DNA of 64,000 bases from Patescibacteria group bacterium (GTDB taxonomy: Bacteria > Patescibacteriota > Patescibacteriia > Patescibacteriales > UBA12465), in the NCBI GenBank assembly GCA_041651195.1, contig JBAZJR010000002.1:117857-181856 (forward strand), given 5' to 3'. Below the pieces are notes generated by a model that made no database searches, was not told the origin of the DNA, and saw only the letters and a program-made list of their open reading frames with translations. Positions 4,803 to 41,625 of the stretch are shown here, in pieces (within the stretch, counting starts at the first letter, position 1; each line of letters opens with the position of its first letter). The position numbers and the translations under genes are program-made.

Positions 4803-4945
4803 CCAATCCAAAAACGATTACGCTACCCTATTTCTCGGGTAGCTTTTTATTTAAAAAAACGGCCTTAAAAAGACCGCTTTTTTATAAAATAAATCTAGCG
4901 CAGATCATCCTGACGCCGACTGACGCCGACTGTCAGCGCCCAAAA

Positions 4946-5152
4946 CTATTTCCGAGCTAAGCGACCAGAAACGCCGATCAAATATAGCGCGGCCAAGCCG
5001 ACCAGGGTATAAACGATACGCGCCAGGACGGACATAGCGCCGAAAAGAGCCGCCACCAAATCCCAACTAAAAAGGCCCACTAAGGCCCAGTTCAAACCGC
5101 CGACGACGACCAAGATGATGGCAATCCAATCCAGCGTAGTTAAGTTTTTCAT
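4946..5152 (-). CDS. DUF378-family small membrane protein
   Basis: 68 aa with two TM helices. 'LDWIAIILVVVGGLNWALVGLF' matches my recollection of the DUF378 signature. Confidence 0.7.
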   Translation of the reverse strand: MKNLTTLDWIAIILVVVGGLNWALVGLFSWDLVAALFGAMSVLARIVYTLVGLAALYLIGVSGRLARK

Positions 5153-5334
5153 ATTAGCAAGAAGAGAAATTTTAAATATTCTATAAACAAACTCGACCTT
5201 TAGCGTTTGTTTAAATTAAATTCCCAGGCTGTCCAAGCTAAATTATCTAAATTACGGGGGCGAGATGGTAGGCCCCTCTGAATCAATTATACCTTATTAT
5301 GAGAAATAAATAAAGCCGCACAAGACCGCTGCCT

Positions 5335-6003
5335 CTAATTAGAGAAAGGATTAAAATCTGTCTGCTCGTCGTAAAAATCTTCCCGCTCCCGCTGCTTCAA
5401 GAAAGCAATGGCTCGATAAGTGAGCGGAGTGAACAAGATCTCTACGAGCGTCTTAAAGACATAGTTAGAAATTATCAAAGTGACCAATAAAGAGGGCGGC
5501 AAGATCCCGACAAAGGCGATCAATACGAATAATAGACTGTCGACCAGTTCGCCGCCGACCGTAGAGCCGATCGTCCTGAGCCAGAGATAGCGGCCGCGCG
5601 TCCAGACCTTGAGTTTCGCCAAGACAAAAGAATTCAAGAAGGCGCCGCAAAAATAAGCCACTAGGCTAGCCGCGACGATCCGCGGGGTCAAGCCGAGAAT
5701 CGCTTCATAAGCTGCCTGATTGGGCCAATCCGCGGCGGGCGGCAATTTCCCGACGATGATGAAAGCTAAAGACATTAGTAAGGCCGAGAAAAAACCGAGC
5801 CAGATGACCTGGCGCGAGCGATGGTAGCCGTAGACCTCGGTCAAGATGTCGCCGAAGATATAGCTGAGCGGGAAAAGCAAAGTGCCGGCGTCAAAGACGA
5901 AATAGCGCAAATCAACGATCTTGGCGGACACGATATTGGAAATCAGGAAAATAACCACGAAAAAAATGCTGATGATACTCAAATAACGATAAGATTTTTC
6001 CAT
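5335..6003 (-). CDS. yhhQ: queuosine-precursor transporter, YhhQ/VUT (DUF165) family
   Basis: 222-aa polytopic membrane ORF. Family-typical 'LLFPLSYIFGDILTEVYGY'. Confidence 0.8.
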   Translation of the reverse strand: MEKSYRYLSIISIFFVVIFLISNIVSAKIVDLRYFVFDAGTLLFPLSYIFGDILTEVYGYHRSRQVIWLGFFSALLMSLAFIIVGKLPPAADWPNQAAYEAILGLTPRIVAASLVAYFCGAFLNSFVLAKLKVWTRGRYLWLRTIGSTVGGELVDSLLFVLIAFVGILPPSLLVTLIISNYVFKTLVEILFTPLTYRAIAFLKQREREDFYDEQTDFNPFSN

Positions 6004-6063: not shown

Positions 6064-6137
6064 TGGCACGGGATGTAGGTGCTGCCCCTACGCTACTGGT
6101 TTTGGAGACCAGTGTACTACTGTTATACTAATCCCGC
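6064..6137 (-). tRNA. tRNA-Trp(CCA) with non-canonical D- and T-loops and an encoded CCA
   Basis: Minus strand reads GCGGGAT TA GTAT AACAGTA GTAC A CTGGT CTCCAAA ACCAG TAGC GTAGG GGCAGCA CCTAC ATCCCGT G CCA. 7-bp acceptor stem (G1-U72 wobble), 5-bp anticodon stem, U33, anticodon CCA, A37, 5-bp T-stem with G53-C61, discriminator G73. Confidence 0.75.
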
Positions 6138-40103: not shown

Positions 40104-41066
40104 ATGACTCAAACCGATCAACCGAATAAAAAAATCCGCACGATCTTCATGGGCACGCCGGAATTTTCCCTGCCGGGACTCAAATCCCTTCTCGCCGCGC
40201 CGGACATCGAGATTGTCGGCGTCTTCACCCAGCCGGACAAGCCGGTCGGCCGCCGACAGATATTGACGCCGCCGCCGGTAAAAGAATTAGCCGCGCAAAA
40301 TAAAAAACCGGTCTTCCAGCCCGCTAAGATCAAGACTGAAGCGACGACTATCAGGGGCTTAAATCCGGATCTAATCGTCGTCATCGCTTACGGCAAGATC
40401 ATCCCCGCGGAAATATTAGACATCCCGACCTACGGCTGCCTCAATGTCCATGCTTCCCTCTTGCCGAAATACCGCGGCGCCGCTTGCCTCAACGCGCCGA
40501 TCCTTAATGGCGATAGCGAAACCGGGGTGACGATCATGCAGATGGACGCCGGTCTTGACACCGGGCCAATTTTACGGCAAGCTAAAATAAAATTAAATGG
40601 CCGAGAAAATCTGGCTGATGTCCACGATGCTTTAGCCGCCTTAGGCGCAGAAAATCTTGTCCCGACCATAAGAGATTTTATCCAAGGCCGGATTGAACCG
40701 CAGATCCAGGCCGAAAGCGCTGCTAGCTATGTGAAAACTTTGAACAAAGAAGATGGTAAGATCGATTGGACAAAAACGGCTAAAGAGATCGAGCGGATCG
40801 TCCGCGCCTATAATCCCTGGCCCGGAGCTTACACCCAGATCGCAGCAGACGCTAAAACCATCAAGATACTGGCTGTCGAGCACGAAACCATCCCGAGCCA
40901 TAGCCTGAAAACCGGAGAAATATCTATCTCAGACCAAAAATTAATCATCCAGTGTGGACAGGATGCTTTAAGTATATTAAGATTACAGCTGTCCGGCGGC
41001 CGGCCGTTGACCGCGGCCGATTTCCTACGCGGCCATAAGGATCTGGCCGGACAGATATTAAAATAA
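40104..41066 (+). CDS. fmt: methionyl-tRNA formyltransferase
   Basis: 320 aa with 'IFMGTPEFS', 'NVHASLLPKYRGAA' and 'QMDAGLDTGP'. Confidence 0.93.
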   Translation: MTQTDQPNKKIRTIFMGTPEFSLPGLKSLLAAPDIEIVGVFTQPDKPVGRRQILTPPPVKELAAQNKKPVFQPAKIKTEATTIRGLNPDLIVVIAYGKIIPAEILDIPTYGCLNVHASLLPKYRGAACLNAPILNGDSETGVTIMQMDAGLDTGPILRQAKIKLNGRENLADVHDALAALGAENLVPTIRDFIQGRIEPQIQAESAASYVKTLNKEDGKIDWTKTAKEIERIVRAYNPWPGAYTQIAADAKTIKILAVEHETIPSHSLKTGEISISDQKLIIQCGQDALSILRLQLSGGRPLTAADFLRGHKDLAGQILK

Positions 41067-41086: not shown

Positions 41087-41158
41087 GGTCCCTTCGTCTA
41101 TCGGTTAGGACGCCAGGTTCTCATCCTGGTAAGAGGGGTTCGATTCCCCTAGGGACTA
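41087..41158 (+). tRNA. tRNA-Glu(CTC)
   Basis: GGTCCCT TC GTCT ATCGGTTA GGAC G CCAGG TTCTCAT CCTGG TAAG AGGGG TTCGATT CCCCT AGGGACT A. CCA is not encoded. Confidence 0.9.
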
Positions 41159-41164
41159 CGAAGC

Positions 41165-41197
41165 AAAAAGGATTCTGCGAATGCAGAGTCCTTTTTG
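41165..41197 (+). terminator. intrinsic terminator after tRNA-Glu
   Basis: Stem aggattctgc / gcagagtcct (one G-U pair), loop gaat, followed by TTTTT. Confidence 0.7.
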
Positions 41198-41211
41198 ATT
41201 TATATTCGCAA

Positions 41212-41226
41212 CTAGGGGAATCGAAC
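41212..41226 (-). repeat. inverted 15-nt copy of the tRNA-Glu T-arm
   Basis: ctaggggaatcgaac is the reverse complement of gttcgattcccctag (41138..41152). Confidence 0.8.
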
Positions 41227-41353
41227 AGGTCAGAAACGAGCTTAGCCGAAGGCCAGCAGGCCGAGGCGTAGTGAGCGTCAGACGAAGCTCCGGGGGAGCT
41301 TCGGGCGCTGACCGCAACAACGAACGAGCGGACTGGTCAGCGAGTGAGGCGAA

Positions 41354-41370
41354 ATTCCCCTAGGGACTAC
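41354..41370 (+). repeat. direct 17-nt copy of the tRNA-Glu 3' end (att-like)
   Basis: attcccctagggactac is identical to 41143..41159. The similarity continues loosely into a degenerate copy of the terminator (aaaaagg...tctttttgat). Confidence 0.85.
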
Positions 41371-41584
41371 AAATAAAAAAGGCCCGGCATTGCGTCTTTT
41401 TGATGTTAAAAAAGAGAGAATACCAATTTATTCCCTCTATTAAGAAGCGCTTAGTTGTTTGATTAAGGCTGGCTATGAAATCATTAATCATATTTATAAC
41501 TTGAAATAATTAATATTTCCTATATTGAAATTATAGCCCTTTTTACCTCTTTTTAAAAAGGGGTCAAACGGATTTCTCGACCAA

Positions 41585-41625
41585 TCTTAATTTTTCTGAA
41601 ATCCTCTCTTAATTTTTCCGAAATC
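41585..41625 (+). repeat. two 19-nt direct repeats with 22-nt period
   Basis: tcttaatttttctgaaatc (41585..41603) and tcttaatttttccgaaatc (41607..41625), 18 of 19 identical, upstream of the 41761 operon. Confidence 0.7.

Follow-up and report, generated by a model that had tools for sequence, protein, structure and literature searches.

The tRNA-Glu(CUC) gene in the window studied here, a stretch of 64,000 nucleotides from contig JBAZJR010000002.1 of a Patescibacteria group bacterium, is followed by a GC-rich insert and then by a second copy of its own 3' end. This arrangement raises the question of what the insert is, and an earlier note, made from the letters alone, had offered two answers, either the collapsed remnant of an integrative element or a small structured RNA that uses tRNA-like ends. 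The present analysis revealed that the insert belongs to a family of units with a conserved architecture and structure, that the arms of the units match the adjacent tRNA, that the units occur in some relatives and not in others and have a mosaic make-up, and that gene cassettes are found at the repeat ends. Positions 41160-41370 are probably one copy of this gene-less structured unit family at an integration hotspot behind tRNA-Glu and tRNA-Cys genes, which would serve as a platform for cassettes by accretion. To judge from the predicted folds, the structured domain is most probably a small RNA on the tRNA strand.

Direct and inverted copies of the tRNA-Glu 3' end

The earlier note had reported that the last 17 nt of the tRNA-Glu gene recur behind it. 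This was found to be exact: the 64-kb window contains two copies of ATTCCCCTAGGGACTAC, one at 41143-41159 and one at 41354-41370, and also with up to three mismatches these two sites were the only ones (0.09 expected from shuffles). The direct repeat can be extended to 29 nt with 90% identity. The 15-nt inverted copy of the T-arm was verified as well: CTAGGGGAATCGAAC at 41212-41226 is 100% complementary to 41138-41152, and its first 10 nt are also complementary to 41354-41363. The ends of the unit are a copy of the T-arm and its complement, paired to each other. The G+C content of the insert is 58-67% (100-nt windows) versus 25-30% in the adjacent non-coding DNA, in agreement with the GC richness described before. 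The perfect hairpin and the GGTCAG/CTGACC pairing that had been pointed out are also present; the latter corresponds to helix P2 (Table 1).

The terminator scan revealed a strong intrinsic terminator in the left part of the unit (terminator A, 41164-41197), which has a 15-pair stem followed by a T-run. A degenerate second copy had been proposed behind the distal repeat. Its A-tract and T-tract flanks are indeed in common with those of terminator A (AAAAAGG...TCTTTTTGAT), but the stem of this terminator B is degenerate, and the scan called 41164-41197 alone. No open reading frame (ORF) was found inside the 211-bp unit of the window. A coding remnant was ruled out, as the six-frame translation was empty and the lengths of the units differ by non-multiples of three. 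The locus sequence is carried base for base by a separate ENA assembly (L081; other loci are designated likewise).

A family of gene-less units behind tRNA genes

The earlier note had suggested looking for relatives of the insert outside the window, and homologous units were found at metagenome loci. Metagenomes were scanned with the pattern GGGGAATCGAAC-N(110-140)-ATTCCCCTAG, in which both arms of the closing helix P1 are fixed. The scan yielded 25 metagenome loci, one of them by chance. A covariance model, R1, was then built from 20 units, and matches with E <= 1e-15 were regarded as strong. R1 detected 30 strong matches with 78-153 bits in 19 sources (loci from about 15 metagenomes), all of them Patescibacteria. 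The unit of the window scores 122 bits with R1 and is a single copy, and no further copy was found in the 64 kb, while up to three units are present per locus elsewhere.

The units are gene-less, have a length of roughly 210-240 bp and are built in the same order, i.e., a terminator with a short spacer, the T-arm complement, a five-helix core, the tRNA-end copy and a second terminator. They occur singly or in arrays behind tRNA-Glu and tRNA-Cys genes. A second subfamily is present behind a tRNA-Glu(UUC) gene with a different acceptor stem; its topology is kept and its sequence is largely different.

The family is absent from Rfam 15 at gathering thresholds, and a permissive search with the region of the window and three other loci gave chance-level matches only, so that the proposed search of the insert against Rfam led to no known family. 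The chance matches were microRNA-like and were caused by the long hairpin at 41138-41226. Three scans of viral contigs gave zero or chance matches, and nothing similar to the unit was found in phage and plasmid records. A search of the literature on integrons, serine recombinases and structured RNAs of Patescibacteria and on bridge RNA at tRNA genes likewise revealed no account of the unit.

Some known classes of elements were considered and rejected. A tRNA or tRNA-like pseudogene was excluded, because ARAGORN and Rfam were negative on both strands and the acceptor 3' strand has no partner. A tRNA-like gene on the minus strand was suggested by the resemblance of 41265-41287 to the 5' part of the tRNA (17/23 nt), but neither a T-stem nor an acceptor stem is possible. 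For a miniature inverted-repeat transposable element (MITE) or another miniature transposon derived from an insertion sequence, the arms of P1 could be taken as a 10-bp inverted repeat, but the flanks (...GCAA/GGAC...) carry no duplication, and the 64-kb window contains one copy alone.

A conserved five-helix structure

The consensus topology of the units is P1[P2[P3,P4]P5], and P1 pairs GGGGAAU(CG) with (CG)A..AUUCCCC. The helices P1, P2, the base of P3 and P4 were scored in 30 units, and partners slid by 1-3 columns were used as a control. The fraction of paired cells was 96.9% versus 27-42% in the slid controls, 15 pairs were changed on both sides, and the covariation score was 0.565 versus 0.05-0.08. 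The helices are maintained by compensatory substitutions, as is generally the case for structured RNAs. In P2 all five pairs covary, each being changed on both sides in 10-14 of the 30 sequences, and 99.3% of the cells are paired. In P4 seven of the nine pairs covary. P3 and P5 are variable hairpins with tandem G.A/A.G pairs at their bases, and the P5 stems are wholly different between the subfamilies, with the pairing kept. About 40 nt in the junctions are conserved, namely CGAAC, AAGCGAG, CGAGCG, CUGGACAAsKGAG, and CGAGGCGAA or GAGCGCGAUA.

Several features of the structure are strand-specific. The plus strand, i.e., the tRNA strand, had the more stable fold in 27 of 28 units, by 8.3 kcal/mol on average. 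The tandem G.A pairs at the bases of P3 and P5 would be C.U on the opposite strand, U.G pairs are found at the base of P5, and G.U pairs are found in P1 of eight units and in the terminators between units. About one third of the units have C-GNRA-G loops on P3. Taken together, these features favour an RNA made in the direction of the tRNA. Of the former idea of a structured RNA with tRNA-like ends, the first half is supported by the conserved structure and the strand asymmetry, but the ends are not tRNA-like in their fold.

The arms match the adjacent tRNA

Units behind tRNA-Cys(GCA) genes were compared with those behind tRNA-Glu genes. The core is kept, and the units start with GGGAGTCGAAC and end with ACTCCCACTCGAGCCTC, which are the complement and the copy, respectively, of the T-arm/3' end of tRNA-Cys. 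The A-U to G-C double change in P1 results from these tRNA-Cys-matched arms. The core of the tRNA-Cys unit at L111 has 79-80% identity to tRNA-Glu units of its own lineage, compared with just 60% to the other tRNA-Cys unit, showing that the ends of a unit go with the site and that the cores are exchangeable. In every unit type the direct copy begins inside the T-loop, at nt 55-58. At two loci, L103 (684-840) and L106 (2959-3117), the last unit of the array was observed to end in ATTCCCCTGCCTCAAA and not in the acceptor tail of tRNA-Glu.

Presence, absence and mosaicism of the units

The tRNA gene, with fmt (40104-41066) directly upstream, anchors the locus, and the order fmt-tRNA-Glu is kept in the relatives L001, L002, L083, L088, L092, L094 and L107. 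The unit is absent behind tRNA-Glu in L088, L002 and L083/L084. In L088 and L002 a terminator alone follows the tRNA gene, and they represent the empty site that the earlier note had suggested to look for in related genomes. In L083/L084 the tRNA is followed by a remnant, the ~110-nt left end of a mobile element. The occupied counterpart is L092, in which an 8-kb element and two units are present. The earlier note had also reasoned that conservation of the insert without an occupied/empty polymorphism would speak against it. The insert is conserved in distant relatives, yet the polymorphism exists, and because both situations hold, the comparison does not decide between the two options of the note.

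Comparison of the units with one another revealed that they are mosaic. L099 and L111 have an NYN cassette and the following unit in common (95.5% core identity), and L099 contains two extra units between the tRNA and the cassette. The three units of L099 belong to three subfamilies, and each of them is 85-95% identical to units at other loci. The core of the window unit is nearest to L109 and L112 (88-91%), but its left module is only 60% identical to that of L112, the left module of L109 being off its contig end. In turn, the left module of the window is 90.6% identical to that of L102, which lies behind tRNA-Glu, while the core of L102 has 67% identity. Likewise, the left modules of L094, L096, L105 and L114 are 77-79% identical to that of the window, and the cores of these four loci and L102 only 62-69%. 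The gains and losses together with the mosaic patterns indicate acquisition and recombination, and neither local duplication nor strict vertical descent. The identity with L102 also shows that terminator A and the spacer belong to the unit family. The alternative that terminator B is the native one was tried with L088 and was undiscriminating, the similarity being 36/56 for B versus 34/56 for A.

Three pair-breaking substitutions distinguish the window copy from the units most closely related to it. At 41236 a G>A change turns the outermost P3 pair into A.C, at 41280 a G>A change turns one P4 pair into A.C, and at 41339 a C>A change breaks one P5 pair. A further specific change, at 41272, leads to a G.U pair. 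The window copy may be ageing or under relaxed selection, as it is solitary, contains these three substitutions and has a decayed second terminator.

An integration hotspot with a recombinase element and cassettes

The direct repeats of the tRNA 3' end that flank the insert are the typical footprint of attachment sites at a tRNA end. Additional information came from L092, in which the 8-kb element lies between tRNA-Glu and the two units. Besides a 507-aa large serine recombinase, which adjoins the tRNA on the reverse strand, it carries genes for a protease, a rolling-circle Rep and toxin-antitoxin proteins. Two further copies of the tRNA 3' end and an inverted copy of the T-arm were found at the distal end of this element, with a repeat spacing of 217 bp versus 211 bp in the window. 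The stretches in between are ~65-70% identical to the insert of the window, with compensatory changes in the hairpins. The genes beyond the units (Fic, HTH_17) are those that directly follow tRNA-Glu in L088. Neither the recombinase nor the Rep of L092 was found in the window by tblastn.

At other loci single-gene cassettes are located between units; they encode an NYN nuclease, a PMT_2 glycosyltransferase, an acyltransferase_3, Fic + CYTH and GNAT. In L104 a radical-SAM/SPASM gene directly follows the last unit seen. The left end of the cassettes is conserved and begins immediately after a tRNA-end copy, and it encodes, in antisense, the last 49 residues of the serine recombinase. The conserved right end comprises ~75 nt, finishing with ...TTTAAGACTAC, and is followed by the terminator of a unit. 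In L099 and L107 recombinase-type cassettes are inserted at the unit copy that is equivalent to the distal repeat. Since the cassettes are bounded by conserved ends at tRNA-end copies, either the tRNA end or the spare end of a unit is probably the attachment point of the recombinase-type cassettes.

A derivation of the unit from the serine-recombinase element was considered and rejected, because no common sequence exists, the sole similarity being a marginal 17-nt match 220 nt downstream. No integrase is present inside the unit, and no autonomous relative with the same ends was found. Between subfamilies the units differ at their 3' ends, whereas a recombinase half-site would be expected to be conserved. 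The former proposal of a collapsed integrative remnant therefore stood in part. The hotspot is genuine, and the unit is present or absent in relatives, but the insert is a full-length member of a conserved family, its helices covary across the family, and it has no sequence in common with the ends of the recombinase element.

Observations on the recombinase gene and on interrupted tRNA genes at this site are added here. In L092 (11012-11160) the recombinase ORF runs through the left end and the terminator, in antisense, into the tRNA-Glu gene, and the overlap into the left end was also seen at L083, L084, L096, L099, L107 and L111. Due to the entry into tRNA-Glu, the last ~15 codons of the recombinase are set by the integration state. 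The last 49 recombinase codons survive as a conserved remnant in cassettes without the recombinase. In L085 (3466-3589) and L086 (1620-1741) tRNA-Glu is interrupted after the D-loop by a 29-nt GC-rich hairpin (ctcgcctcgcttcgctccggcgaagcggg), unrelated AT-rich DNA follows, ARAGORN reports no tRNA, and both contigs stop at the same base. L113 (~690-760) contains the 3' half of tRNA-Glu(UUC) alone, from the anticodon loop on, after unrelated DNA; it resembles the attR of another element, one with its integration site in the anticodon loop. The contigs of L082, L087, L089 and L091 break inside or just after tRNA-Glu. Such breaks are expected from near-identical tRNAs with variable downstream arrays in one community, and the array lengths given here are to be read within the limits set by short-read contig breaks.

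Proposed explanation

The following mechanism would explain these results. Terminator A would end the tRNA transcript. In P1 a duplicate of tRNA nt ~56/58-64/67 pairs with the complementary arm, and the remaining acceptor 3' strand follows. A unit would enter by recombination at or beside the tRNA 3' end, which would account for the direct repeat, and its spare tRNA end would recreate the attachment site. Further units and serine-recombinase cassettes could then stack behind the tRNA, each unit adding one attachment point, and the structured domain would act as an RNA. The units might move by being carried between neighbouring cassettes that excise together, as in accretion (PMC5704250).

Several points weigh against this explanation. 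The serine-recombinase cassettes apparently have their own conserved ends, and only ~8 nt (GACTACTA) are common with the site; moreover, no recombinase able to move the unit itself was identified. The acceptor tail past P1 is unpaired and decays in distal units, and it is thus not part of the selected feature. In L101 the upstream copy (...CCCCGTGGCGGTAC) differs from the unit's own copy (...CCCCTAGGGACTAC), which makes the position of the crossover ambiguous. The arms were fixed in the pattern of the scan, so that their conservation is partly ascertained, and matches found by the model only show variants. With respect to the RNA, G.U pairs in P2-P4 are rare (~5 of ~450 cells) and about equal in number to A.C mismatches, which is also compatible with a structure read in DNA. 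No convincing promoter was found between terminator A and P1, just a -10-like TATATT at 41201-41206.

Alternative explanations

The hotspot could also be retained with a different function of the unit, namely as a recombination site that is read as folded single-stranded DNA in the manner of attC. P1 would mimic the T-arm duplex for a recombinase acting in trans, the tRNA would serve as attI, the units would mark the borders of cassettes, and the unit would have no RNA function. The array order tRNA, unit, unit, cassette, unit, in which the accessory genes are single and diverse, would be explained in this way, as would arms that match the target tRNA, a structure that is conserved above the sequence, and helices that are almost purely Watson-Crick, and the gene-less units would resemble ORF-less cassettes. 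Nevertheless it is unlikely. The unit is a five-helix multi-junction with ~40 conserved junction nt and GNRA-type loops, unlike the one imperfect hairpin and the R/L boxes of attC, and no tyrosine recombinase of the integron type was found beside any of the arrays. The cassettes also bring conserved ends of their own and are inserted next to the units instead of across them, and P1, with just 7-11 bp, is too short for a two-arm recombinase site. A related possibility is that the RNA of the unit is a targeting cofactor, the two arms of which complement opposite strands of the T-arm DNA and guide a recombinase or nuclease encoded elsewhere. IS110 bridge RNAs and the tRNA-matching homing guides of type V-K CRISPR-associated transposons are conceptual parallels. 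One scaffold carries arms for two tRNAs in a single lineage, the 5' arm is longer than P1 needs, with CGAAC complementing tRNA nt 53-57, and a target-identical 3' segment follows the structured scaffold. The conservation of CGAAC is uninformative, however, because the T-loop GTTCG is universal in tRNAs. In addition, no candidate effector gene was found linked to the units, the flanking genes vary by locus, and the L092 recombinase and Rep are not in the window. The arms pair mutually, whereas known guide segments sit in loops, and the acceptor tail decays in distal units, so that a guide is very unlikely. With respect to IS110 bridge RNA and TnpB omega RNA, neither a DEDD recombinase nor TnpB was found among the precomputed Pfam labels beside the units in L081 and L092.

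If, in turn, the integration part is given up, the unit could be a structured small RNA serving the host, which arose by partial duplication of tRNA-Glu, and the repeat would reflect this origin. However, units are absent from close relatives, a locus can have 0 to 3 or more copies, divergent subfamilies occur within arrays, the unit is mosaic, arms are swapped between tRNA-Glu and tRNA-Cys sites within one lineage, and the window copy and distal copies are decaying. These points make a host function rather unlikely, in spite of the purifying selection on the structure, the fixed position and orientation behind the tRNA, the terminator of its own, and a stretch that looks like a decayed T-arm, made up of the P1 3' strand and the nucleotides directly before it (GAGGCGAAATTCCCC). 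The idea of a scar without function, in which a larger integrated element would have lost its genes and had its ends fused, or a pseudo-tRNA would have decayed, is contradicted by the covariation: 30 homologues keep five helices via compensatory changes, and at the Fmt protein identity between these genomes (52-70%) neutral DNA could no longer be aligned. There is also no sequence in common with the ends of the recombinase element, and neither ARAGORN nor Rfam detected a tRNA on either strand. A scar is highly improbable, even though direct repeats of the tRNA 3' end bracket only 194 bp without a gene, substitutions break pairs in the window copy and its terminator is decayed, and a weak antisense resemblance to the 5' part of the tRNA exists (23 nt at 74% identity).

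A more far-reaching reading is that the structured RNA or folded strand, with arms copying both T-arm strands, would be the programmable core of an integron-like cassette platform in Patescibacteria. The arms would determine the site of cassette capture, and re-matching them would retarget the scaffold from tRNA-Glu to tRNA-Cys, so that a nucleic acid would choose the site for a recombinase acting in trans. This reading is unlikely.

Comparison with known systems

The hotspot resembles the ssrA islands of Dehalococcoides, several of which lie in tandem downstream of one small-RNA gene (McMurdie et al. 2011, PMC3146451). These islands have a 20-bp repeat that starts in the T-loop and, beside attL, a reverse-strand gene for a large serine recombinase, and many of them lack an integration module and were interpreted as cis-mobilizable (PMC3146451). 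The placement of the serine recombinase in L092 and the tandem elements behind an RNA gene are alike. In contrast, the target in Dehalococcoides is tmRNA (PMC3146451), and here it is tRNA-Glu or tRNA-Cys. The repeats in Dehalococcoides are also not associated with a structured non-coding unit, just with a 15-bp motif upstream of each (PMC3146451). In the present case only ~8 nt of the recombinase cassettes are also found in the site, the 17-nt repeat being part of the non-coding unit.

The unit is also similar to cis-mobilizable elements (CIMEs), which have attL/attR-like flanks and no integrase and lie, in tandem with relatives that do carry one, at a target gene's 3' end (PMC5704250); like these, the unit could be carried when neighbouring elements excise together (PMC5704250). 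CIMEs are decayed, multi-kilobase derivatives of integrative and conjugative or integrative and mobilizable elements (PMC5704250), whereas the unit has ~210 bp, is not derived from the neighbouring elements and is under selection for structure. In Prochlorococcus tycheposons, as here, tRNA genes seed variable islands, the integrations are separated by partial tRNA copies only, and cargo-only elements and remnants exist (bioRxiv 10.1101/2020.12.28.424599). The recombinases and the hosts differ, and the partial tRNAs of tycheposons are bare attachment sites (bioRxiv 10.1101/2020.12.28.424599). The partial tRNA of the unit, in contrast, is the closing helix of a conserved structured domain.

The attC site of integrons, which is recombined by IntI, consists of one imperfect hairpin (57-141 nt) with RYYYAAC/GTTRRRY boxes. 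The attC sites are defined by structure and separate single-gene cassettes, and arrays without an integrase (clusters of attC sites lacking integron-integrases, CALINs) as well as ORF-less cassettes exist. The units are similar insofar as they are conserved in structure above sequence, have single-gene cassettes between them and have no integrase nearby. However, an attC hairpin with R''/L''-L'/R' boxes (RYYYAAC...GTTRRRY) was not seen in the units, which form a five-helix multi-junction, and the arrays begin at fmt-tRNA-Glu. No IntI-type recombinase was detected next to the arrays among the precomputed Pfam hits of neighbouring genes, the sole recombinase being the serine recombinase of L092.

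What is novel is a conserved, gene-less, structured unit with a closing helix made from the attachment sequence, which is re-matched to different tRNAs. Patescibacteria have tiny genomes, and their routes of gene exchange are little known. The units mark a tRNA-anchored platform in this group; stacked between them are a serine-recombinase element and single genes of accessory function (nucleases, Fic, acetyltransferases, glycosyltransferases). The unit is a candidate structured RNA missing from Rfam, and its closing helix, made from the attachment sequence and its complement, varies with the tRNA. Should the structure be involved in recombination, integration sites would be specified in a new way; should it be an RNA in its own right, a major uncultured lineage would have an abundant orphan RNA. 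When these genomes are annotated, a partial tRNA repeat should not be taken as a simple prophage scar.

Features of the locus and further observations

The coordinates of the tRNA gene and of the parts of the unit are summarized in Table 1.

Table 1. Positions of the tRNA-Glu gene, the repeats and the elements of the unit in the window
Feature	Position	Strand	Remarks
tRNA-Glu(CUC) gene	41087-41159	+	ARAGORN; Rfam 41087-41158, 56.4 bits; CCA not encoded
Proximal 17-nt repeat	41143-41159	+	tRNA nt 58 to discriminator plus one base
Left module of the unit	41160-41211	+	Terminator A, then spacer ...TTATATTCGCAA
Inverted T-arm copy	41212-41226	+	Complement of tRNA nt 52-66; holds 5' strand of P1
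P1	41214-41221 (extendable to 41212) with 41354-41361(63)	+	Closing helix
P2	41228-41232 with 41309-41313	+	Encloses P3 and P4
P3	41236-41276	+	Base tandem G.A/A.G (ACGAG / TGAGC); apical GGCC-AGCA-GGCC at 41251-41262
P4	41279-41307	+	Includes perfect hairpin GAAGCTCC-GGG-GGAGCTTC (41284-41302)
Junction GCAACAACGAA, P5, junction TGAGGCGAA	41314-41353	+	P5 = 41328-41341, flanked by CGA/GAG tandem G.A pairs
Distal 17-nt repeat	41354-41370	+	41354-41361(63) = P1 3' strand; rest (acceptor 3' strand) unpaired
Degenerate terminator B (AAATAAAAAAGGCCCGGCATTGCGTCTTTTTGATG)	41371-41405	+	Not called by terminator scan

The closest Fmt proteins have 62-72% identity and are from Patescibacteria metagenome-assembled genomes (MAGs) and metagenomes, some of them named Falkowbacteria. 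Fmt is on record as a 305-aa version, the start codon of which was called differently from that of the full-length ORF. Elsewhere in the window, Rfam called a tRNA at 6067-6137 on the minus strand with 49.1 bits, above the gathering score, and ARAGORN reports none there. Downstream of the unit, two 19-nt direct repeats, TCTTAATTTTTCTGAAATC and TCTTAATTTTTCCGAAATC, are located 22 nt apart at 41585-41625, in the AT-rich spacer upstream of DUF2178/HTH genes. The stretch 41586-41602 agrees in 16/17 nt with the conserved right end of recombinase-type cassettes, with a marginal E-value of 0.05, and to judge from this resemblance the region 41585-41625 may be a remnant of such a cassette.

Small insertions next to tRNA genes were also observed in L001, a Patescibacteria MAG. 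Within 5744-5880 the 19-nt sequence AAGTAGGGCGCCGTTAGCT, which spans the leader of tRNA-Lys and its first 12 nt, has a second copy ~115 nt upstream. The two copies bracket a hairpin-rich insert, and this is the 5'-end counterpart of the tRNA-Glu case. At 5095-5196 a decayed tRNA-Glu-like stretch contains two small GC-rich insertions. Lastly, a GC-rich long palindrome (tacctcacccc...ggggtgaggta) is present at 4880-4975 in the AT-rich spacer between fmt and tRNA-Glu, and it looks like another small palindromic insertion element.

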